DNA from: an uncultured delta proteobacterium
GTDB taxonomy: Bacteria > Desulfobacterota > Desulfobaccia > Desulfobaccales > 0-14-0-80-60-11
Direction of reading: 5' to 3'
Assembly (NCBI GenBank): GCA_963812655.1
Contig: CAWEWX010000039.1
Location: 159,832 to 223,831 of the forward strand
DNA: 64,000 nt
The position numbers were made by a program, and so were the translations under genes. The notes under the pieces are model-generated. The model was not told the DNA's origin. It made no database searches and saw only the letters and a list, made by a program, of their open reading frames with translations. This document shows, piece after piece, positions 4,233 to 59,509 of this stretch. The first letter of the stretch is position 1; every line of letters begins with the position of its first letter.

Positions 4233-4952
4233 CTAGTCCTCCGGAATATTGCGTTGCCGGCCTACTGCCAGGTCGTGCAGCGGAATGAGGATGTCCGCCA
4301 TCTCCCTGACCCGCCGGGCGCTTTCATAGGCGTCGATCACGTTGAGATGCACTCCCGAGGGCACCACCGGACCCTTGGCGGGAAAGTTCTGCTCGTTGCA
4401 GCAAAACCCGGTGATCACCGCCTTGCCCCGGCGGGTGTTCACCACCACCGATTGTCCACCCACGGTGTGTCCTGGGGTGAGGAGCACCTGGATACCCTCG
4501 ACGATCTCGGCATCCCCCTCCACCGGCACGATCTCCAGGCCATCCAGCAGGTCCGGGAAGTAGCGGTGGTCAATGGGGTGGGGATTTAAAAAGAAGTCGT
4601 ACTCCTTTTTCTGTACGTAAATTCTGGCGTTCCTGCACTTGTAGTCATTTTCGCAGTGGTCGTTGTGCAGGTGGGTGTGGATGATGATGTCGATATCCTC
4701 GGGCTTGAGGCCGTAGCTGCCCAGGGCCGCCTCGAACTCCTGGATCTTCAGGCCGTATTGCTCCGCTACCGCCGGCGGCACCATGAACTGCTCCAGGCCG
4801 GTATCCACCAGGATTTTTTCCGGACCCCCTTCCAGGTAAAAGACGTAGATGGGTATCCAGATCCTTTTGCCATAGCCCTTCAAATAGGTCATGACGCCCT
4901 GGTCGGTTTCGTTGGCCCCCACCACCAGGGGATGGATGACATATTGGCGCAT
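4233..4952 (-). CDS. MBL-fold metallo-hydrolase (lactonase-like)
   Basis: HxHxDH motif HTHLHNDH and downstream TPGHT. Start ATG 4952 is preceded by GGAGAGGAG. Confidence 0.8.
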   Translation of the reverse strand: MRQYVIHPLVVGANETDQGVMTYLKGYGKRIWIPIYVFYLEGGPEKILVDTGLEQFMVPPAVAEQYGLKIQEFEAALGSYGLKPEDIDIIIHTHLHNDHCENDYKCRNARIYVQKKEYDFFLNPHPIDHRYFPDLLDGLEIVPVEGDAEIVEGIQVLLTPGHTVGGQSVVVNTRRGKAVITGFCCNEQNFPAKGPVVPSGVHLNVIDAYESARRVREMADILIPLHDLAVGRQRNIPED

Positions 4953-5140
4953 GCTCCTCTCCTCTCGCTGGTTCATCGGGGAAAACGATCTTTATTATAC
5001 GCCTGGACAGAAAAAATATTAAGGCTGAACGGTGAGGGCGGAACCTGCTTCGCTCCAGGGCGCACCCCGGAAAAATTCAGGGGAGCGGCTTAGACCGCGC
5101 CCCCCATAGTCGCAGGTTCAGAGCCGCGGCTGGCCCGGCC

Positions 5141-5929
5141 TCATCTCATCCGGCCGGCAATGACCCGACGGGCCACGTTGATGGGGATGGCAAAACTGAT
5201 GCCCTGGGCCCCCTGGGCCATCATGGTATTGATGCCGACCACCTGGCCGTCGATGTCCAGCAAGGGTCCGCCGCTGTTGCCGGGGTTGATGGAGGCATCC
5301 GTCTGGATGAAGTCGCTGTATTGGCCAGTGCCCAGACCCCGGCGGCCGGTGGCGCTGATAATACCCACGGTCATGGTGTGCTCCAGCCCGTAGGGGCTGC
5401 CGATGGCGATGGCCCACTGGCCCACCTGCAATCTGTCGGAGTCCCCCATAGTCACGGCCTTCAACCCCTGGGCCTGCACCTGGACCAGGGCCACGTCAAA
5501 TTTTTTGTCGTAGCCTACTAACCGGCCCCGGAGTTCGCGGCCATCATAGAGTTTCACCTGAATCTCCTGGGACCCGGCCACCACGTGGCTGTTGGTCAGG
5601 ATATAGCCCCTGGGATCGATGATAATCCCGGAGCCCTGCCCCACCTGGCGGACGGTGCGGCCCCCGCCGTATTCCCGGAAAGTCCCTTCATAGGGGGTCC
5701 CCCGCCAGAAATCCTGCGGGGACCCATTGGGTTCAGTCTGGATCACTTTGACGGCCTTCAGGCTAACCACCGAAGGCATCACCTCTTGGGCCACCCGGAC
5801 AAAGTCGGATTGCAGCCCCGTGGCCGCGGAGGCGGCTGCCGCCGGGCCGGGCCCTGGCGGCCCCATCCCCGCGGGCACGGTTAGGGCCAGTCCCAGGGAG
5901 AGCAAGATCAAGGAGCAACGCTGGCGCAT
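5141..5929 (-). CDS. Trypsin-like serine protease (S1C/HtrA-like catalytic domain, no PDZ domain evident)
   Basis: Signal peptide MRQRCSLILLSLGLALTVPAG. Catalytic-triad contexts TNSHVV, DVALVQV and GNSGGPLL. The 262-aa length leaves no room for a PDZ domain. Confidence 0.8.
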   Translation of the reverse strand: MRQRCSLILLSLGLALTVPAGMGPPGPGPAAAASAATGLQSDFVRVAQEVMPSVVSLKAVKVIQTEPNGSPQDFWRGTPYEGTFREYGGGRTVRQVGQGSGIIIDPRGYILTNSHVVAGSQEIQVKLYDGRELRGRLVGYDKKFDVALVQVQAQGLKAVTMGDSDRLQVGQWAIAIGSPYGLEHTMTVGIISATGRRGLGTGQYSDFIQTDASINPGNSGGPLLDIDGQVVGINTMMAQGAQGISFAIPINVARRVIAGRMR

Positions 5930-8128: not shown

Positions 8129-8638
8129 TCAGGTGGTGGCGCCTCTGGCCGCGGCCATGAGTTCGGCCATGGCAGCCTGCTCAAATTCCCCGGCCTTCTC
8201 CGAGCGGGGCAGGGAGGCGGCGCCCTGGATGACCCGCTGGGCCGGGGAGGTGTCCTGTTTGACCTTCTCCACCCTAAGCTCCCACATAGCCATGGCGTCG
8301 CTCATGGCCATGGACTCCTTGAGGAGCCGCACGCTGCCCTGGATGCCCATCACCAGATCCTCGGCGCCCACGATTTCCAGGGAAACCCGGCCGTCCCGGC
8401 GCAGATTGGCGGTGGTGGTGCTGCTCCTCAGGGTGCCCAACAACAGGGTGCGCTCGTCCTTGGCGTAGATGAGGGTAACGGGACAGGTGTTGGGCGCCCC
8501 GTCGGCCCCCACCGTGCCGGCCACCGCGATGATCCGGTTGGGGTTGCGGTTGAAAAGCTGCATCAGATCGATGATCTGCTCTTCCCCGGGTTTCCGGGCC
8601 ACATTGACCAACAGGCGGTCACCCACTATGCGGGCCAT
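8129..8638 (-). CDS. Pyridoxamine 5'-phosphate oxidase-like (split-barrel flavin-binding) family protein
   Basis: The sequence pattern (IIAVAGTVGADGAPNTCPVTL..., LRRDGRVSLEIV) resembles PNPOx-like split-barrel proteins. Start ATG 8638 is preceded by GAGGAG. Confidence 0.6.
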   Translation of the reverse strand: MARIVGDRLLVNVARKPGEEQIIDLMQLFNRNPNRIIAVAGTVGADGAPNTCPVTLIYAKDERTLLLGTLRSSTTTANLRRDGRVSLEIVGAEDLVMGIQGSVRLLKESMAMSDAMAMWELRVEKVKQDTSPAQRVIQGAASLPRSEKAGEFEQAAMAELMAAARGATT

Positions 8639-8844
8639 GGTTTCATCTCCTCTATCCCCCCTCACTCCAGCCCTCTCCCCCGCAAAGCGGCGGGAGAGAG
8701 GCTATGAATGTGAGAAGGTCTGGTTAAATTTGGGGGTCAGTATCCAGGGCGGCCCCTGGCCGCCGTGATCTCAGGAAGCCCCTGCCGGGGCGCCTGTGCC
8801 ACCGGAATGCTTAACCGAAAACCAAAAACCGAAAACCACCGTCT

Positions 8845-9909
8845 TCAAGGCTGGGTAGGGCGACCCCGCGGGTCGCCCCTACCGAAGTGCCGGGCCATGG
8901 CCTCCAGAACCTCCTCCGGCTCGATTTCCGTGAGACAACGGCTGATCTTGGAGCCCTCACAGCCGTCCCTCCCACAGGGGACGCACTGCCAATCCTTCTG
9001 GAGCACCAGGTGGCCTTCGCCCCAGGGCCCCCAGTTAAACGCGCCGCTGGGGCCGAAGAGGGCCACCGCCGGGGTGTCCACCGCCGCGGCCAGGTGCATG
9101 GGGGCGCTGTCCACGCCGAAGAAAAACCGGGCCCGCTGGATGAGGGCCCCCAGTTCCTTGAGGGTGAGGCGGCCGGCCAGGTTGATGGGGGCCAGCCGGC
9201 TCTCCCGGAGGATGGCGGCTAACAGCTCCTGCTCGTGCGCCGCCCGGCTGCCGGTAAGGACCACCGGCAGGCCCCACTCGCCTTGCAGGGCCTCCAAAAC
9301 CCGGGCGTATCCCCGGGGGGTCCAGCACTTGAAGCGCCAGCCGGCCCCGGGGTGCATCACCACAAAGGCGCGGGGGGCCAACCCATGGGAAGCCAGCAGC
9401 TCCTGGGTGCGCTCTTCCACCTGCCGATCCCAATAAAACTGCAGCCGCGGCCCCGAAGGCGAGAGGCCCAAGGCCCGCAAGGCCTCCAGGTTCTGGTCCA
9501 TCAGGTGCATCCTGACCGCGGGCCGGGGCAGGAGGCGGGTAAAGCAGCCGCGGCGCTGCCAGAAAGGCCGGCGGGGGTGGTCGAAGCCCAGCCGTTCCGG
9601 GGCCCCGGAGAGCCGGGCATAGATGGCCCCCCGGTCGCCGCCGGAGAGTTCCAGGACCAGATCGAAGCGGCGGCGGCGCAGTTCCCGGACCAGGCCCAGG
9701 GCCTCCCCCCAGGATTCCTGGCGCCGCTCCACCACCAGGAGGTCGTCCAGCCCCGGGTGCCCGGCCACCATCTCTTCGGTCCCCTTAGGGACCAGGTAGG
9801 TCAGGTGGCAGTGGGGCCAGGCCTCTTTGAGGGCGGCGATCACCGGGGTGGACACCAGCACGTCCCCGGGCTGCTTCAACTTGATCACCAGGATGCGTTT
9901 AGAACTCAT
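8845..9909 (-). CDS. Glycosyltransferase family 9 (LPS heptosyltransferase-like)
   Basis: N-terminal ILVIKLKQPGDVLVSTPVIAAL and C-terminal GVDSAPMHLAAA are GT9 hallmarks. The last ~13 codons run through a palindromic REP (8854..8883). Confidence 0.85.
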   Translation of the reverse strand: MSSKRILVIKLKQPGDVLVSTPVIAALKEAWPHCHLTYLVPKGTEEMVAGHPGLDDLLVVERRQESWGEALGLVRELRRRRFDLVLELSGGDRGAIYARLSGAPERLGFDHPRRPFWQRRGCFTRLLPRPAVRMHLMDQNLEALRALGLSPSGPRLQFYWDRQVEERTQELLASHGLAPRAFVVMHPGAGWRFKCWTPRGYARVLEALQGEWGLPVVLTGSRAAHEQELLAAILRESRLAPINLAGRLTLKELGALIQRARFFFGVDSAPMHLAAAVDTPAVALFGPSGAFNWGPWGEGHLVLQKDWQCVPCGRDGCEGSKISRCLTEIEPEEVLEAMARHFGRGDPRGRPTQP

Positions 9910-17187: not shown

Positions 17188-17217
17188 TACTTGTGATTAT
17201 TCACGATTATTACTAAT

Positions 17218-18147
17218 TTAAATTGTTAACTTCGCAATATACGGCTTAATCGCATTTTCAAAACGTATCATCGCATCAACCATTTGTTCAATAATTTTCG
17301 ACCATTTGTTTTCATCACGATATCCACCAATCATGATTTGTTTTCTAATACGTGAAGCTCTCTTAGTATCTAATCGTTGCCAATCTAAGGGTTCTCCAAA
17401 CGCAGATTCAATCTCAGGCTTATGTTTAATAAGCTGATCAAATATCTGCTTATTCTCTTCGTCCTTATCTTTTCCACGATCAATATATAATTCTACCTGT
17501 GCTTCATTCTTTCGTATTGCATAATTAAAGTTCAACCCATATTTTCCCGCACCAGTTCCTATCCAGCCATATTGACCAGGCGTAATACCTGCGTGAAGTT
17601 TAGTTTTCAACTTGGCATAATTTAGTAATTCAGCCCAAAATTTTTGACGAATTGAGTATCTTTCTGCTATTTCCTTCTTAGTAGTGCCTATCTCTTTTCC
17701 CTCTTCGCTTGGGCCGACAATCAGCGTCAGCAAGGGAGCAGGAGGTGACTCTCCAATTTTTATAGCCTCAAGTTTTACTAAGTAGAAATTTGCCGATGAG
17801 GATTCATTGAGCCATGTGATCGCACTGATATGTTCCGGTCTTGGATCAGAAATAATCCAAATAGCCGCTTTGGCACTGAGACCGACCAGATATGTTATAA
17901 GCTTGCCAAGGTGGTCATGATCACTTTTCCCAAGCTGGTTTTCGATTATGACAGAATTGCCGCTTCCATCTTCAGCTATTAAATCAACATTGAAATTCCC
18001 AACCGATTGTTCTCTTTCCACATTTTCTAAACTAAGATCAATGACATCGTTGAGGACATCAATATTTTCTTGAAGCCACTTGGTAAAATCCAAGGCTTCA
18101 TGTTTCCAAACCTCTCGAAGATGGACCCTTTCTATTTTTCCAATCAT
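17218..18147 (-). CDS. PD-(D/E)xK-like nuclease domain fused to a DUF4268-like C-terminal domain (AT-rich islet gene)
   Basis: The N-terminal segment NVDLIAED...SVIIENQLGKSDHDHLGKLITY reads as a D...E-x-Q/K restriction-endonuclease-like core. The C-terminal half (RQKFWAELL...GWIGTGAG..., ELYID...) looks like DUF4268 as I recall it. Composition is strongly AT-rich versus the flanks. Confidence 0.7.
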   Translation of the reverse strand: MIGKIERVHLREVWKHEALDFTKWLQENIDVLNDVIDLSLENVEREQSVGNFNVDLIAEDGSGNSVIIENQLGKSDHDHLGKLITYLVGLSAKAAIWIISDPRPEHISAITWLNESSSANFYLVKLEAIKIGESPPAPLLTLIVGPSEEGKEIGTTKKEIAERYSIRQKFWAELLNYAKLKTKLHAGITPGQYGWIGTGAGKYGLNFNYAIRKNEAQVELYIDRGKDKDEENKQIFDQLIKHKPEIESAFGEPLDWQRLDTKRASRIRKQIMIGGYRDENKWSKIIEQMVDAMIRFENAIKPYIAKLTI

Positions 18148-18250
18148 ATTTAATTCCTTTTTACCCGGAATAAAAAATTGATTAATTTTGATCTCCCTTA
18201 AATTCCCTCTCCCTCAAGGGAGAGGGTTAGGCTGTGTATGGAAAGTCAAC

Positions 18251-18421
18251 CTAGTTCACCTTCCCACCAACAGAAATTTTGGTTTGACCTCCGATGATCA
18301 CGGTGTCCTGGTCTTGGTCATGCAGCGAGGTGTCGGTTTGCCTGGTCTCCGCCACCCCACATGCTGATACTGAGGCGGCCATGATCAAAAATAACAGTGC
18401 GAAAATTAGCTTTCTTATCAT
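18251..18421 (-). CDS. Small putative lipoprotein
   Basis: MIRKLIFALLFLIMAASVSAC has a lipobox-like VSAC. ATG 18421 is preceded by GGAGG. Lies in the same AT-rich islet. Confidence 0.45.
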   Translation of the reverse strand: MIRKLIFALLFLIMAASVSACGVAETRQTDTSLHDQDQDTVIIGGQTKISVGGKVN

Positions 18422-18651
18422 TATCTTAACCTCCAAAACTTTGATCTGACGGCAACTCAAAGTATTGGGCAATAGCTGAGATCATGCGGCTAACCTTGAC
18501 CGCCGCAGTCCCCCAAAGGTTTTTGGGCTCATTGGCCCGGGAAAACCCCCTAAAACATATTGAATATTAATAACTCAAGTTTCGCACCCCTGAATTTAGT
18601 ACACAGGCGGGACGCCTAGGCTACCTGCTGTGTAGTCAGTAAGTTTCTGCA

Positions 18652-27142: not shown

Positions 27143-27254
27143 CTCAGGGCGAAAAATTGATTACCTAGGGAGGTTTTATTTAATCCCCTCTCACCTGACG
27201 GAGGAGAGGCTTAGGGTGAGGGGAAGTTTAATCTCTTTTCCGCTCCCTTAATAA
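27134..27254. repeat. Composite intergenic element, copy 2 (same family as 6514..6704)
   Basis: TTATTACTCAGGGCGAAAAATTGATTACC..GGAGGTTTTATTTAATCCCCTCTCACC..GAGAGGCTTAGGGTGAGGGGAAGTTTAATCTCTTTTCCGCTCCCTTAATAA. Contains the stop codon and last codons of the methyltransferase ORF. Confidence 0.8.
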
Positions 27255-28503
27255 TTTCAGTTTTTTCAGTAAGGCTTCTCTCTTTCCAGATTCTTAGGAA
27301 TTTCTCTTTAAATTTGTGATGGACCGCTAAATCAGGATAGCCCAGTCCGGATTTAATCAAATAGGTATTAATGAATATCTTATTTTTTAGATAGATATAA
27401 GCCGGTATAATATTACCATTGCTTTGAGCATCGGTCTTAATTATAATCGATTTTCCCAGCAACCGGTCGTTTAAATAATTGACGGTTTCCTCTTCCTTAT
27501 CAATAGTTATCCCCAGAAACTTAATAACCTTGCCGTTATTTAATTTAATTTTATTGCCACTGATGATTTGCACTACTTTAACCAGATGATCTTTTTCAGG
27601 TTCCTGGGGCCGGGGGATAGGCTCAGCCTCCTGGATCGCGGGAACATAATCGATTTCCGGCAATCCCCCCAGGTTGCTGCTTCTCCTGATAATTTGCACC
27701 TCCGGGGTAAAGATAGGTAATTTATCCTTAATGCCCAGCTTTTCTTCCAGGATTTCCAGAAAATTTTCATTAATCTCATAACCCAGGGCGTCTCGCCCCG
27801 ATTCCAGGGCCGCCTTGACGGTGGTGCCGCTGCCCAGAAAGGGGTCGAGCACCGTGTCGCCCTGAAAAGAGAACATCCGGATGAGACGCCGGGGCAGCTC
27901 CTCGGGGAACATGGCCTCGTGGCCCAGTTGCCGGGCGCCGCCGAAACGCCAGTGGCCGGAAAAATACTCCTTCCATTCCTCCTTGGTCAACCTGGAGGCT
28001 TCTTTCACCTCTTTCGAGACCTTCCTGCTGGCCCCAGGTTTTTTGAAGATGAGGATGAATTCATAGTCGATCTCCACCAGGCCGTTGGGGGGATACGGGT
28101 AGGAGCCCATGACGTTGGCCCCGCCGCTGGTATTCAGGGTGGTCTTTTTTTGCCAGATAATGGCGCCCAGGTAATCGAAGCCGAGGCGCTCGCATTGGCC
28201 GATGAACTCGGCGTGCAGCGGGATGACCTTATAGCGGCCATAAACCGCGGCCCGGGCGAATTGATCGCCGATGTTGAGGCACAAGCGGCTGCCGGGCCGC
28301 AGGACCCGGAAACATTCGCTCCAGATATGAAACAGGTCGGTGAGGTATGGGTGCAGGCCCTGGCCATGGCCAATCTGGCCCGGCGCCCCATAATCCTTGA
28401 TTTGCCAGTAAGGCGGGGAGGTGACCACGAGGTCAATGGTCGCGGTTTCGATCTCCGGCATGGCTCGGCTGTCGCCGATGATGATTTTGGCCCGGTTATC
28501 CAT
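27211..28503 (-). CDS. DNA methyltransferase (beta-class N4-C/N6-A, SPPY) fused to a degenerate SNase-like OB-fold domain
   Basis: Motif IV DLVVTSPPYW precedes motif I VLDPFLGSGTT (beta order). The C-terminal ~110 aa align by eye with staphylococcal nuclease (VVQIISGNKIKL / FLGITIDKE / IPAYIYL..INTYLIKSGLG / FLRIWKE), but the catalytic positions are substituted. Confidence 0.85.
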   Translation of the reverse strand: MDNRAKIIIGDSRAMPEIETATIDLVVTSPPYWQIKDYGAPGQIGHGQGLHPYLTDLFHIWSECFRVLRPGSRLCLNIGDQFARAAVYGRYKVIPLHAEFIGQCERLGFDYLGAIIWQKKTTLNTSGGANVMGSYPYPPNGLVEIDYEFILIFKKPGASRKVSKEVKEASRLTKEEWKEYFSGHWRFGGARQLGHEAMFPEELPRRLIRMFSFQGDTVLDPFLGSGTTVKAALESGRDALGYEINENFLEILEEKLGIKDKLPIFTPEVQIIRRSSNLGGLPEIDYVPAIQEAEPIPRPQEPEKDHLVKVVQIISGNKIKLNNGKVIKFLGITIDKEEETVNYLNDRLLGKSIIIKTDAQSNGNIIPAYIYLKNKIFINTYLIKSGLGYPDLAVHHKFKEKFLRIWKERSLTEKTEIIKGAEKRLNFPSP

Positions 28504-44742: not shown

Positions 44743-44797
44743 TTCTCATTGATTAAAATTAAACCTTATTTTATATAATTAAGGGGTAAAATTATTA

Positions 44798-45391
44798 ATG
44801 GGTTTGGCAATGAATGTCACCGAACTGATTCGAGCCTTTCGTGAGGACCTGCCTAACCGATCAGTAATTGAATTGGTTCAGAAACACATTACCTTTGGTA
44901 GCGATTGTTATGCTCTAAAACGAGATGCTCATTTTGAGTTGAAGAACCAAGTTGCCCGAAAGTTTGATATTAATCCAACCGAAGTAGTTGTAGTTGGGTC
45001 CGCTAAACTAGGTTTTAGCATAGTATCTGGAAAAAGGTATCGTTGGTTCGGAGATTCTTCAGATATTGATATTGCACTTTGTTCTAACAAACTTTTTGAT
45101 CAAATATGGATAGATGTTTTCGATTATTGGCGGCGAGGTGATTTTTGGGATGAACTAAACCAATTCCGAAAATATCTATTTAGAGGATGGATGAGACCTG
45201 ATAAATTACCCCCAGCAAAATCCTTTGCAAGAAGCCAAGAATGGTGGGATTTTTTTCGCCAATTAGCATCAACAGGGAATTTTGGAAATTATAAAATATG
45301 TGGGGCTCTTTACAAGAGTTGGCATTTTTTAGAATCTTACCAAGCAAAATGTATGAGTGAATGCAAAGAATTGGAGGAAATAAGTCAATGA
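44798..45391 (+). CDS. Minimal Pol-beta-superfamily nucleotidyltransferase-like protein (AT-rich islet gene 1)
   Basis: hG[GS]-x(n)-DhDh pattern: VVVVGSAKLGFSI followed by SSDIDIAL, then a helical Trp-rich tail. Strongly AT-rich. An alternative start is ATG 44810. Confidence 0.65.
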   Translation: MGLAMNVTELIRAFREDLPNRSVIELVQKHITFGSDCYALKRDAHFELKNQVARKFDINPTEVVVVGSAKLGFSIVSGKRYRWFGDSSDIDIALCSNKLFDQIWIDVFDYWRRGDFWDELNQFRKYLFRGWMRPDKLPPAKSFARSQEWWDFFRQLASTGNFGNYKICGALYKSWHFLESYQAKCMSECKELEEISQ

Positions 45392-46563
45392 AAAATACCG
45401 GGACAAATCGGAAAATTCGTCAACTTATAACAAGTGTTCGCGAAGGCAAGCTATTACCACGGCCAGATTTTCAAAGGCGCCTCGTTTGGAATAATAAAGA
45501 TAAGAGTTCATTTCTTGAGACAGTATTAATGGACTATCCATTTCCAGAAATTTATATAGCAGCTGGAGAAGTTAATGTTGAAACCGGAGAGGGGAAGGAG
45601 TTATTGGTGGATGGGCAACAGAGAGTAACTACTCTTTACCAATATTTTACTGCATCGCCGGACCTAATTCTTTCAAAATCTGTTCGACCATATGCAGAGC
45701 TTACAAAAGATGAAAAAGAAAGGTTTCTCCAATATGATGTTGTTGTTAGAGACCTTGGGCAAGTGGATATTGAAATTATAAGGAATGTCTTTCAAAGAAT
45801 CAATGCCACTCGATACGCTCTGAATGCAATGGAAATACATAATTCAAGATACGAAGGTGCATTTAAAGATTTTGCCGAAGAATATGCAGAAAGGCCTTTC
45901 TTTGACTCACATAGAATTTTCAGCGCATCAGAAATTAGAAGAATGCAAGATATGAGATTTGTTGCCGTTCTGTCAGTAACTATATTAGGGACATATTTCA
46001 ACCGTGATGATGAATTAGAGGAATATTTAAAAAGATATAATGATGAGTTCCCTTTACGAAAAGATCTTGAAAAGGAGATAGATGCCGTTTTCGGTTTTAT
46101 CGATCATATGGACATGCCTGCAACTTCAAGAACATGGAAAAAAGCTGACATGTTTACTTTGATGGTCGAATTACATCGAATATTTTTTAAGCAGGGAATA
46201 TTGATCGATAACAAAGAGTTCGCGGAAAAATTGAAGATATTCTATTCTCTTGTTGATGATTCAGAAAGCCGAAAAGACCCCAAAAAGGATCCTGCAAAAT
46301 ATTATAAAGCGGCTTTGCAGGCCACGAATGATCGCTCCAGCCGTGTAACAAGGGGTGAAATTATTCAAAAAATTATTGAATCCTGTGTTCATATGGGAAA
46401 AATTGCCACCAGCGAGGTTTGTAAAGCATCGGGAATATATAGGGTGATTAATCATATCGAACACCCAAAAGAAATTACAATGGTGGCAGGTAGACCATTT
46501 CCACCTTGCTCCGAATGTAGTAAAAGAGTTGAATACCGGTTGGTACGGAAAACACAGCAGTAA
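45388..46563 (+). CDS. DUF262 (ParB/GmrS-like) domain protein with C-terminal Cys/His cluster (AT-rich islet gene 2)
   Basis: DUF262 hallmarks RPDFQRRLVW and VDGQQRVTTL, plus FQRINATRYALNAMEI. The ATG overlaps the upstream stop (ATGA). The C-terminus is CVH..C....NHIEHP....CSEC. Confidence 0.85.
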   Translation: MKNTGTNRKIRQLITSVREGKLLPRPDFQRRLVWNNKDKSSFLETVLMDYPFPEIYIAAGEVNVETGEGKELLVDGQQRVTTLYQYFTASPDLILSKSVRPYAELTKDEKERFLQYDVVVRDLGQVDIEIIRNVFQRINATRYALNAMEIHNSRYEGAFKDFAEEYAERPFFDSHRIFSASEIRRMQDMRFVAVLSVTILGTYFNRDDELEEYLKRYNDEFPLRKDLEKEIDAVFGFIDHMDMPATSRTWKKADMFTLMVELHRIFFKQGILIDNKEFAEKLKIFYSLVDDSESRKDPKKDPAKYYKAALQATNDRSSRVTRGEIIQKIIESCVHMGKIATSEVCKASGIYRVINHIEHPKEITMVAGRPFPPCSECSKRVEYRLVRKTQQ

Positions 46564-46949
46564 TTCTTAGTATGCAACCACACCAAAGAAAATATGGACG
46601 GAGCCGTTGAACTTGTGCCATCGGTAAAGCTCGGCGCTATTTATGGCCTCCCACATTACTTAGCTTGGTAAATAAGCATCTTATTTCCTGCGCCATTCGT
46701 TAAGCAAACCCGCAGCCTAAAACGCCCTCTAACCTTCCCACATTTCGGAGGTTGGGCTGTTTATCGGTGTTCGCGAGGGGGAATGCACCATTTTTTGAAG
46801 AAGATTAGTCGAATGGCGAGGCACCTGGGGTGGGTGACTGACGGTGTTATGAAGGAAGGATAAATTCTTAATGAAATGGTGGGCTCGTGTCCACCCAACA
46901 GGTCTTTGCCAGGGGTGACAAAAGGCAAAGGCGATGATATGTTAAACGC

Positions 46950-47738
46950 ATGCTGAAGCGCACCTTTATCCACCTCAACGGGGTGGGGCCCCGGGGTGAG
47001 GCCCATTTCTGGAACCAGGGGGTGGGGACCTGGGAGGATTTTCTGGGCGCTTCGCGGCTCTCCGGCCTGTCCTGGGACCGGCTCCGGCGCCTCCAGGAGG
47101 AGTTGCGGGAATCCGTGCGCCAGGTGGATGATCCCGCCTACTTCGGGGCCCGCCTGGCTGCGGCGGAGCATTGGCGCCTGTTCCGCGCCTTTAAGCCCCG
47201 GGTCGGCTACCTGGACATCGAAACCACCGGCGCCTACTGGCCGGGGCTGTCGGTCACCGTGGTGGGCCTCTATAACGGCAGCGGCCTCCTGCAACAATTC
47301 GTCCAGGGCCGGAATCTGCAGCAGTTCCCGCGGGCCCTGGCGGACTTCGACCTGCTGGTCACCTTCAACGGCACCCAATTCGACCTCCCGGTGTTAAGGT
47401 CCTTTTTCCCGGACCTGACCCTGCCGCCCCTGCACGTGGACCTGCGCTTTCTCCTGGCCCGCCTGGGCTACCGGGGGGGCCTCAAGAAGATCGAACCCCG
47501 CTTCGGCATCCGGCGGCCCGGAGAGGTGGACGGCATGGACGGCTACATGGCGGTGATCCTCTGGGAGCGCCACCAGCGGGGCGACCGCACCGCCCTGGAG
47601 CTACTCCTGCAATACAACCGGGAGGACGTCGTCAACCTGGAGGTCCTCATGGAACATGCCTTCCGGATGCAGCAAGAGCGGCTGTTGCCGGCAACCCGGT
47701 TCACCCCCGAGGCCCGGAGGGCGCCAGGCAGAATCTAG
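46950..47738 (+). CDS. RNase H-like fold 3'-5' exonuclease-like protein (YprB/RNase_H_2-like)
   Basis: YLDIETTG (Exo I-like DxE), TFNGTQFDLPVL (Exo II-like) and YNREDVVNL (Exo III-like). Backbone-like GC. Confidence 0.7.
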   Translation: MLKRTFIHLNGVGPRGEAHFWNQGVGTWEDFLGASRLSGLSWDRLRRLQEELRESVRQVDDPAYFGARLAAAEHWRLFRAFKPRVGYLDIETTGAYWPGLSVTVVGLYNGSGLLQQFVQGRNLQQFPRALADFDLLVTFNGTQFDLPVLRSFFPDLTLPPLHVDLRFLLARLGYRGGLKKIEPRFGIRRPGEVDGMDGYMAVILWERHQRGDRTALELLLQYNREDVVNLEVLMEHAFRMQQERLLPATRFTPEARRAPGRI

Positions 47739-48021: not shown

Positions 48022-48279
48022 TTTTTGGGCAGCTAGGGGTTTGCAATTGCTTTAGTATCGTGTTTCGGGAATATGTTTAAGATATCTTGGCCCTAAAAAC
48101 TCCCCCTCAAGGGAGGGGGAGAAAAGATCTTAATCCTTAGTTAAGATAATCCTGAGACGTTACACTAGCAAAAAATCCCAGGTTGCCAGGCGAGTCCGCA
48201 AACCGCTCGCAGGGCAGGGCGGGCGGCTGGTATATATCGCCAGCCAGATGTGATAAAATGAAGCTGGTTAGGGGCGTTT

Positions 48280-58408: not shown

Positions 58409-58502
58409 GGAGGGGTACCGAAGAGGCCGTAACGGGGTCGACTCGAAATCGACTTGGGGGCTAATCACTCCCACGTGGGTTCGAATCCCACCCCCTCCGC
58501 CA
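58409..58502 (+). tRNA. tRNA-Ser (anticodon CGA), CCA encoded
   Basis: Hand-folded. Acceptor GGAGGGG/CCCCTCC, anticodon stem GTCGA/TCGAC with loop CTCGAAA, long variable arm, T-arm GTGGG-TTCGAAT-CCCAC, then G-CCA. Confidence 0.9.
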
Positions 58503-58635
58503 GTAGTATAGTTGCCAGTGGTCAGTTGTCAGTAGTCAGTAGGATGGGTGGGCCTGGCCCGCCATTTAGGCTCACCACTTGCACAGCGCTTTTTATAACA
58601 GTTATACTTATAATAATACAGTATAGAATCTCTAG

Positions 58636-59319
58636 ATGGACGATGTTACTTTAAAAAGAAAAGCTCTATCCGGACTCGCCAAATTTCTGGTGATTTTGTG
58701 TATCCTGATATTTTTGCCCGCCTGGTCATTGGCATATTGGCAGGGGTGGGTTTTCTTTCTTACTTTTTCTATTTTCATGACTGTCTCCGGTCTTTACTTT
58801 CTTAAAAATGATCCGAAACTCGTGGAGACGCGGCTGAAGGCCGGACCGGCGGCTGAAAAAGAGAAGAGCCAAAAAATCATCATGGCATTCATGTATTTAT
58901 TCTTTATTACTCTAATGGTTTTCCCCGGATTAGACCATCATTTCGGCTGGTCGGAAGTACCGCCATATCTCGTTATCCTCGGGGACATCCTGGTGGTCTT
59001 GGGACTGTTCATATATTGTCTCGCCTTTAGAGAAAACAGCTATGCATCAGCCATTATTGAGGTAGGCAAAGAACAGCGGGTTATCTCAACCGGCCCCTAC
59101 GCGGTTATCCGTCATCCGGTTTACTCCGGAGCAATCATTATGCTATGGGGGATTCCGTTGGCGCTGGGTTCGTGGGGGGCATTTTATTTCGTCTTTCTGC
59201 TCCTAGCCGCAATCGTGTGGAGGCTGTTGGCTGAAGAAAAATTTTTAATAAAAAATTTGCCCGGCTATCAAAGCTACTGTCAGAAGATGCGTTATCGGTT
59301 AATTCCTTTAATTTGGTAA
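58636..59319 (+). CDS. Isoprenylcysteine carboxyl methyltransferase (ICMT/PEMT-like) family membrane protein
   Basis: Multi-TM, with the ICMT-type C-terminal motif ISTGPYAVIRHPVYSGAII...E..L. AT-richer than the backbone. Confidence 0.75.
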   Translation: MDDVTLKRKALSGLAKFLVILCILIFLPAWSLAYWQGWVFFLTFSIFMTVSGLYFLKNDPKLVETRLKAGPAAEKEKSQKIIMAFMYLFFITLMVFPGLDHHFGWSEVPPYLVILGDILVVLGLFIYCLAFRENSYASAIIEVGKEQRVISTGPYAVIRHPVYSGAIIMLWGIPLALGSWGAFYFVFLLLAAIVWRLLAEEKFLIKNLPGYQSYCQKMRYRLIPLIW

Positions 59320-59418
59320 AGATAAGGAAAAAATTGCCGCGCCAGAGCCAAAAGCAGTAGGATTTTATAAGTACCTGACGCGGTTAACTATTTGGCAACC
59401 AGGCGCCCAAAATTCACC

Positions 59419-59509
59419 GGAGAGATGCCCGAGAGGCTGAAGGGGCACGATTGGAAATCGTGTGAGCGCCTAAAACGCTCCGAGGGTTCGAATCCCTCTC
59501 TCTCCGCCA
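59419..59509 (+). tRNA. tRNA-Ser (anticodon GGA), CCA encoded
   Basis: Hand-folded. Acceptor GGAGAGA/TCTCTCC, anticodon stem CACGA/TCGTG with loop TTGGAAA, long variable arm, T-arm GAGGG-TTCGAAT-CCCTC, then G-CCA. Confidence 0.9.

Follow-up and report, generated by a model that had tools for sequence, protein, structure and literature searches.

What are two AT-rich genes doing amongst the GC-rich housekeeping genes of an uncultured delta proteobacterium, and do they belong to any system that already has a name? The question is raised by a stretch of 64,000 nucleotides from contig CAWEWX010000039.1 (assembly GCA_963812655.1, positions 159,832 to 223,831; the whole of this stretch is referred to below as the window), which carries an islet of ~2 kb with two open reading frames (ORFs) on the same strand, gene 1 (44798-45391, + strand, 197 aa) and gene 2 (45388-46563, + strand, 391 aa). 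An initial annotation, made from the letters alone, put the pair forward as a candidate two-gene conflict module in which a minimal Pol-beta nucleotidyltransferase (NTase) is coupled to a DUF262 protein, and in this hedged form the claim is supported by the analysis reported here. The module is real, intact, strictly coupled and horizontally mobile, it consists of two genes, and it joins a known type of sensor, an NsnA-like DUF262 protein, with a new and very divergent NTase-like family. On balance it is probably a widespread, mobile and unnamed module of anti-phage defence or inter-element conflict, in which the NTase would control a ParB-type NTPase by means of nucleoside triphosphates (NTPs).

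Coupling and mobility of the two genes

The islet is plain from both its coordinates and its composition, as the initial annotation had it. Upstream, the ABC-transporter genes have a GC content of 0.60-0.73, which falls to 0.35-0.39 between 44800 and 46600 and has returned to 0.61-0.68 by 46800-47000; overall the islet has 36-39% GC and its flanks ~65%. The stop codon of gene 1 and the start codon of gene 2 share the ATGA at 45388-45391 on the + strand (...AGT CAA TGA / ATG AAA...), an overlap which, judged from the sequence, is one of translational coupling. Neither ORF is a chance reading frame, since their homologues number in the hundreds to thousands, with 413 matches to gene 1 in a word-indexed search, a gene 1 superfamily that comes to 1,498 or more clusters (50% identity) in an exhaustive profile search (E<=1e-3), and 1808 homologues of gene 2, typically of ~335 aa.

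When one genome per species was searched (185,579 genomes), relatives of gene 1 were found in 316 species-representative genomes, spread over the Poribacteria, Chloroflexota, Acidobacteriota, Bacteroidota, Cyanobacteriota, Planctomycetota, Gammaproteobacteria, Actinomycetota and Bacillota, and 80 loci were fetched. A relative of gene 2 lies directly downstream of gene 1 in 77 of these, the remaining three being two loci with insertion sequence (IS) transposases between the genes and one on a contig that is too short; both genes are present at all 79 testable reference-genome loci. The transposases, of the DDE type, lie between the genes or inside gene 2 at L020 (10566-13544), L031 (10718-12241) and L061 (10767-11936), the last of which is one of the 77 and has gene 2 itself interrupted, and these three are the only genome loci without gene 1 directly beside an intact gene 2. 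The reciprocal test, starting from gene 2, found gene 1 upstream in 64 of 64 testable metagenome loci, and viral contigs of IMG/VR carry both genes in seven cases out of seven, at identities down to 27%. The neighbourhood census that had been proposed for homologues of gene 1 therefore has the same outcome in both search directions, with a DUF262 gene adjoining nearly always.

The spacing from stop to start is nearly always between -35 and +30 nt (-4 in 19 loci, -1 in 12, -23 in 14 and -20 in 5), and natural fusions of the two genes occur in P0138 (536 aa), in P0266 and, in frame, at L053. The pairwise identities of the two proteins are correlated in a mirror-tree comparison (r = 0.76, against <=0.09 with shuffled labels). 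Clustering of the neighbouring ORFs at the 80 loci found only these two families to be conserved, other recurring clusters being Poribacteria synteny, and as no third family is conserved the module is one of two genes. The pairing of gene 1 and gene 2 is essentially absolute, and it is almost certain that their products form the complex that is predicted.

Horizontal acquisition, which had been suspected for the window copy from its composition, tight coupling and lack of metabolic context, is borne out across the family both by foreign composition and by the presence of the pair in known prophage defence hotspots. The GC content of the pair lies more than 3 points below that of its flanks in 70 of the 77 loci (medians 0.38 for the pair and 0.50 for the flanks) and is never more than 3 points above it. 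A 6.2-kb plasmid of Cronobacter, of Rop type (ColE1-like), carries a distant version of the pair, and in three E. coli genomes a lambdoid prophage has the pair in its accessory region. At two further loci (L088 and L089) the pair has P2-type gpA on one side and the portal/terminase genes on the other, a position which is the gpA-portal hotspot, the cos-proximal old/tin locus of P2-type phages that has been experimentally validated as an anti-phage hotspot (PMC9122126). In a temperate prophage of Pseudomonas type (L084) the pair occupies the slot that separates the integrase from the cI repressor; this locus and L083 were first read as P4-like satellites, a reading rejected for L084, the neighbours of which are a phage deoxynucleoside monophosphate (dNMP) kinase and a cI/LexA repressor.

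The two protein families and a sister branch

The assignment of gene 2 is secure, as a ParB-DUF262 protein with an NsnA-like helical C-terminal domain. Pfam GmrSD_N (DUF262, PF03235) matches it with an E-value of 4e-22 and 79.7 bits, against a gathering cut-off of 33.2 bits, and the domain, of the ParB/Srx-type that binds NTPs, spans residues 11-155 (45418-45852, + strand). Its three motifs, I FQRRLVW, II VDGQQR and III FQRIN, are invariant in 42 homologues, as is a C-terminal block, ALQATNDRSSR.TRGE; the motifs of ParB-DUF262 have been defined as QRxxxW, DGxQR and FxxxN (PMC12065111). All of the motifs quoted in the initial annotation are present, namely RPDFQRRLVW and VDGQQRVTTL in gene 2 and VVVVGSAKLGFSI and SSDIDIAL in gene 1. 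The best match in PADLOC is NsnA of Menshen (E 1.2e-30), with residues 6-333 aligned to positions 49-382 of a profile of 385, and other members of the family match NsnA at 1e-27 to 1e-41; PD-T4-2_A matches gene 2 partially and more weakly (E 1.5e-14).

The helical C-terminal domain covers residues ~160-335 (45865-46392, + strand), as delimited by the NsnA match, conservation and an AlphaFold 2 (AF2) model, in which the predicted local distance difference test (pLDDT) score is 70 overall and 87-96 over most of residues 220-330, a region that is all-helical. On this model the domain matches NsnA-C/ParBDB, the DNA-binding domain that has been described for NsnA, DndB, GmrSD and SspE (PMC12065111). 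That gene 2 would lack a DUF1524 domain has held, as Pfam finds no DUF1524/His-Me nuclease in it and its C-terminal region consists of helices followed by a disordered stretch. Since domains of the ParB/Srx type are capable of nicking DNA on their own (PMC5512222), the description of gene 2 as nuclease-less holds for His-Me domains only. The last 55 residues (337-391; 46396-46560, + strand) are absent from homologues, are predicted to be disordered and contain CxH...C...CxxC, and this extension, delimited by the AF2 model and comparison with homologues, may have arisen through loss of an ancestral stop codon. Long C-terminal tails that appeared on gene 2 at other loci were rejected, being tblastn read-through past stop codons.

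Gene 1 is far more divergent, and PGAP annotates its relatives as 'hypothetical protein'. Its core consists of beta1-G67-S68, a family-specific insert of ~13 aa and then S88-D89-I-D91 on beta2, and it is followed by a conserved, aromatic-rich C-terminal half that includes GW.RPD.LPP. All of 80 members, with identities down to 27%, have G67, S68, G72, D91 and G130, and S88 and D89 are each kept in 79 of them. The hG[GS] pattern of the Pol-beta superfamily appears as VVVVG67-S68 in every one of these members, with strand 63-66 preceding helix 68-71 in the AF2 model (pLDDT 92.9), and the [DE]h[DE]h pattern appears as D89-I-D91-I on strand 89-95 of the same model. The spacing from GS to DxD is 20 residues, in classical Pol-beta NTases it is 9-13, and the longer spacing is accounted for by the family-specific insert.

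Profile comparisons of gene 1 point in the same direction. The Pfam family NTP_transf_2 matches the window copy at E 0.22, which is below threshold, and when members were scanned singly NTP_transf_2/Polbeta were the only Pfam families to recur, in 7 of 39 close and 15 of 42 divergent members, with a best NTP_transf_2 E-value of 3.3e-4, none of the E-values implying a score close to the 21-bit cut-off; the fusion protein P0266 has such a match at E 0.0022. In hhalign the gene 1 family aligns to three PDB-verified minimal nucleotidyltransferase (MNT) proteins with a probability of 42% and a pairwise P of 2.7e-4, its VGS pairing with FGS and its SDIDVA with SDLDLA, and KNTase aligns in register once the 13-residue insert is allowed. 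Because of the invariant GS...SDxD core and the recurrent sub-threshold matches to NTP_transf_2, gene 1 is probably a very divergent, catalytically intact minimal NTase of the Pol-beta/MNT-like kind. The original designation as a Pol-beta NTase is thus a probable one, founded on the core and on weak profile matches, and no structural match was found.

The gene 1 family is not limited to the pair. A divergent branch of ~219 aa, found in Klebsiella, Serratia, Sulfurovum and Arcobacteraceae, has full-length homology to it (hhalign 99.5%, E 2.7e-22) and retains the GS...SDxD core, with its conserved partner being an upstream overlapping PF00912 'Transgly' gene. For the Aliarcobacter relative, a DUF4365/REase-like gene on its downstream side was considered as an alternative partner and rejected, the branch-wide partner being the Transgly gene. 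As the divergent branch is coupled to a Transgly gene, the NTase-like protein is common to at least two two-gene modules. It is doubtful, though conceivable, that gene 1 founds a superfamily of small regulatory NTases, the branches of which are locked to different partners and make up a new two-gene class of immune system. If it were so, an NTase-made nucleotide or a covalent nucleotidylylation would act as the gate, on an effector directed at DNA in one branch and at the cell wall in the other, with a ParB-DUF262 NTPase or a GT51/Transgly-like enzyme as the partner, and the superfamily would be a new relative of the logic of Clover and Hailong.

The sister module is seen in Klebsiella, Sulfurovum, Aliarcobacter and metagenomes, where the genes of a small Transgly protein (~190-219 aa) and of a full-length gene 1 homologue (217-223 aa) share 14-17 nt (4409-5660 at L171 and L172, 4439-5654 at L173, 4358-5672 at L175 and 8226-9480 at L082). 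At L082, on the Aliarcobacter plasmid pM830MA (121880-140320), the pair is adjoined by a defence-like cluster of a DUF4365/REase-like protein (647 aa), a PLD-like nuclease, a TIR-domain protein, a DUF4917 protein and an AAA ATPase.

A possible role for the pair and its alternatives

A role in defence or conflict is likely to judge by the families and their genomic settings, and a mechanism can be outlined from the parts. Gene 2 would provide a DNA-sensor/NTPase unit as in GmrSD, SspE and Menshen, here without a His-Me nuclease or NsnB and NsnC, and the NTase of gene 1, co-translated with it, would use NTPs to control this ParB-type NTPase and DNA-binding partner. It may do so either through a nucleotide that it synthesises as a ligand of the DGQQR pocket, in the way of CloB in Clover and HalB in Hailong, or by nucleotidylylating the gene 2 protein covalently, as MntA does to HepT. 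MntA is reportedly a regulatory NTase that acts on HepT. In Clover, CloB makes p3diT to restrain CloA (PMC12265719). Phage infection would then perturb the control exerted by the NTase and set the DUF262 protein free to act on DNA or NTPs, in a way that would block phage replication.

The NTase is favoured as the regulator because the only detectable kinship of gene 1 is with regulatory NTases of the MNT type, because its gene is the first of the two and overlaps the second, and because the NTP pocket of gene 2 could take an NTase product. In toxin-antitoxin (TA) operons it is the antitoxin gene that usually comes first. The pairing of the NTase-like family with a Transgly gene as well also suits a regulator somewhat better than a dedicated effector.

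A number of observations have to be set against this explanation. Gene 1 has no significant match in Pfam, NCBIfam, PADLOC or the sequences of the PDB, sequence and profile searches against PDB chains gave noise only, and Foldseek with its model against the PDB and BFVD returned nothing below an E-value of 1, the top PDB match being a Pol-beta NTase, TbTUT4, at a non-significant 1.7. This null result of Foldseek carries little weight, as the same procedure with gene 2 as a control also failed to retrieve BrxU or SspE. The candidates for a third catalytic carboxylate are not invariant, D135 being found in 71 and D101 in 54 of the 80 members, and the NTase fold is a putative one. The pairing with Transgly genes means that the family, from its sequences, is not specific to sensors of DNA or NTPs. 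The window copy stands alone among housekeeping genes (ABC transporter, proS, relA), outside any defence island. A PADLOC scan of 223 dereplicated neighbours, counted per family and not per protein, found Type III and Type II restriction-modification, Lamassu (LmuA), Mokosh (MkoB/C) and SoFic at some loci, but enrichment over background is not claimed for these, because bare PADLOC matches are also common among housekeeping ORFs; a control scan of those in the window gave matches at 1e-8 too. Gene disruptions, which might have betrayed the polarity of a toxin and its antitoxin, are few and roughly symmetric and do not tell regulator from effector. The assignment of gene 1 as regulator and gene 2 as effector is the favoured one, and the defence role as a whole is inferred.

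The roles of the two proteins could be the other way about. The DUF262-ParBDB protein would then sense phage DNA, modified or otherwise marked, by way of NTP hydrolysis, as has been proposed for NsnA, GmrS and SspE, and would activate a toxic NTase that nucleotidylylates tRNA, other RNA or protein in the manner of MenT/AbiEii-type toxins, with abortive infection as the result. Such an arrangement agrees with every characterised DUF262 system, in which DUF262 is the sensor/NTPase and the effector is another domain (PMC12065111, PMC10952713), and the fusions of NTase and DUF262 resemble a GmrSD whose nuclease has been exchanged for an NTase. The invariant catalytic core of gene 1 is in keeping with it, as is the large, conserved aromatic C-terminal half, which could bind a macromolecular substrate. 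It is at odds with the affinity of gene 1, which is solely to NTases of the MNT/NTP_transf_2 type, that is to regulators, whilst no Abi or other toxin-type NTase model of PADLOC is matched. The NTase-first, overlapping order is also the antitoxin-first pattern, and a Transgly enzyme, with which the same family pairs, is unlikely to be a DNA sensor. This reversal is the main rival, and an unlikely one. A related possibility is that the pair is an addiction cassette, in which a type VII-like enzyme antitoxin and a ParB-type toxin would keep plasmids, prophages and islands stably in place, and any phage defence would be no more than a by-product. Fused MNT-HEPN proteins do show that an enzyme antitoxin and a toxin can be joined (PMC13000451), and a small bicistron of overlapping genes, carried on the 6.2-kb plasmid (which is non-mobilizable and has little other cargo) and in isolated islets among housekeeping genes such as that of the window, is what might be expected of such a cassette. 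The P2 gpA-Q hotspot and the integrase-proximal slots of prophages are instead typical of exclusion or defence cargo. We know of no nuclease-less DUF262 protein that acts as a toxin, which counts against the cassette as well, and it is regarded as improbable, with the proviso that TA and defence roles are compatible and that it therefore overlaps with the preferred explanation.

Least probable of all, to the point of being hard to credit, is that the pair has no part in conflict, being either a housekeeping or DNA-transaction module, in which a ParB ATPase like DndB or DpdB works with an enzyme that transfers nucleotides and either modifies DNA itself or controls a pathway that does, or a decaying insert with no function. 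ParB-like ATPases such as DndB and DpdB do act in DNA-modification pathways (PMC12839542), the window copy has no defence neighbours and its gene 2 bears the odd disordered extension of 55 aa. Yet the module is self-contained, the 80 loci having no further conserved gene that might, for example, encode a modification enzyme, it is patchily distributed across many phyla with a GC content below that of its hosts and is carried on plasmids and prophages, and the window copy has kept both of its ORFs and every catalytic motif intact. A mobile conflict module in which the NTase would control the DUF262 protein is the explanation preferred here.

The islet in its window and its place among named systems

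The islet begins with an AT-rich leader of 55 nt (44743-44797, + strand) in which a sigma-70 promoter is plausible, with a putative -35 hexamer TTGATT at 44749-44754, a 17-nt spacer and TATATA at 44772-44777, followed by a putative ribosome-binding site, AAGGGG, at 44782-44787; a promoter scan did not report this promoter, the -10 hexamer of which ends in A. Gene 1 could start at 44798 or at 44810, with 44798 favoured because of the AAGGGG upstream, and for gene 2 the start at 45388 (391 aa) is preferred to an alternative upstream ATG at 45361 (400-aa ORF) because its homologues all begin with MK(T/N)T. Beyond gene 2 there is a non-coding trailing edge (46564-46800) along which the GC content rises from ~0.45 to the level of the host. 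The first host gene downstream, of the RNase_H_2 family, begins at 46950 and is followed by ProS and RelA/SpoT, and an ABC ATPase and permease lie upstream. A search of the borders for att sites or flanking direct repeats, tRNA genes, integrases and Rfam RNAs found none.

The islet is not the only region of deviating composition in the window. A second AT-rich islet, of a single gene, lies at 17200-18600 (GC 0.36-0.47, with flanks of ~0.70), where an ORF on the - strand (17218-18147, 309 aa) has, judged by eye, a PD-(D/E)xK-like signature, VDLIAED...VIIENQLGKSDHDHLGK, and may be another horizontally acquired gene of the nuclease type. An ORF at 27211-28503 (- strand, 430 aa), with a GC content of 0.51, which is below average, has an N-terminal SPPY motif; a PADLOC scan of the window gave one strong match to MTase_II (2e-131) and one to PDC-S11 (1e-141), and the former is probably due to this ORF as an N4/N6 DNA methyltransferase. 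Between two tRNA-Ser genes an ORF at 58636-59319 (within 58409-59509; GC 0.45) encodes a polytopic membrane protein. A match to the Rfam anti-hemB small RNA at 48093-48193 (- strand), in an AT-richer gap upstream of proS, has a score of 26.5 bits (E 0.0033), which is below the gathering score of 49.5, and is probably due to chance.

Is the pair, then, already known under some other name? The initial annotation could recall none, and none emerged within the reach of PADLOC v2 (2023), which is without models for Clover or Hailong, and of the full-text literature searched, where neither a model nor a description of a DUF262/ParB protein paired with an NTase was found; within that reach the pair is unnamed. 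The recent Vibrio papers that mention DUF262 concern WonAB, GrwAB and TgvAB, which are different systems. The Menshen survey goes no further than to say that DUF262-centred systems are 'not limited to' those named.

Amongst the closest known systems, Menshen (NsnABC) is linked to the pair by gene 2, which is closest to NsnA in PADLOC and has in common with it a ParB-DUF262 domain and a helical C-terminal domain of the ParBDB type (PMC12065111). However, the NsnB ABC-ATPase (AAA_15 plus DUF3696) and the NsnC inPIN-effector are absent from the window and from the 80 loci, and Menshen lacks the NTase-like gene that lies upstream of gene 2 and overlaps it. With GmrSD, BrxU and SspE, gene 2 shares an N-terminal DUF262 domain with QR, DGQQR and FxxxN followed by a helical domain, but it does not have their DUF1524 His-Me nuclease and gene 1 matches no nuclease family. 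PD-T4-2 and Dazbog are, like the pair, made of two genes with a DUF262 protein that has no DUF1524, yet neither gene 1 nor any of five diverse relatives (from E. coli, a P2-like phage, the Cronobacter plasmid and viral contigs) matches PD-T4-2_B or DzbB, and no Dazbog model was matched in the PADLOC scan.

The likenesses of gene 1 lie elsewhere. In HepT-MntA (HEPN/MNT, type VII TA) a minimal Pol-beta NTase is likewise encoded upstream of its partner and overlaps it, fused versions exist, and the catalytic strand SDIDxA of gene 1 aligns with SDLDLA of HI0073 and MntA. The partner of gene 1 is a ParB-DUF262 protein, though, with no match to HEPN (Rx4-6H) in Pfam or PADLOC, and gene 1 differs from the MNT proteins in being ~60-90 aa longer, in the 13-aa insert between GS and DxD, in its unique aromatic C-terminal half and in falling below Pfam thresholds. 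It also matches no cyclase model of PADLOC, which separates it from CBASS, the sole cyclase match being that of a distant member of the Transgly branch over the GS...DxD region only, at a marginal E-value of 0.0054. In Clover (CloAB) and Hailong (HalAB) a small Pol-beta NTase makes a nucleotide or oligonucleotide that restrains a partner effector (PMC12265719). The pair resembles them in having two genes, and its gene 2 has a dedicated NTP pocket. It is set apart by the type of partner, which in those systems is an HD dNTPase or an ion channel, gene 2 being neither.

A definition of gene 1 would in any case put a name to the proteins of its superfamily, the Transgly-coupled sister branch included. 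If the pair is indeed a defence system, it would be a compact (~1.6 kb) and phylogenetically broad addition to the DUF262 group of GmrSD, SspE, Menshen, PD-T4-2 and Dazbog, with an NTase-like enzyme in place of the nuclease or ATPase partners that are usual there, and would offer a simple two-protein model for how NTP-binding sensors of the ParB/DUF262 type are switched. It would also extend a principle, discovered only recently, in which small Pol-beta NTases restrain immune effectors, whether by nucleotides, as in Clover and Hailong, or by covalent marks, as with MntA.

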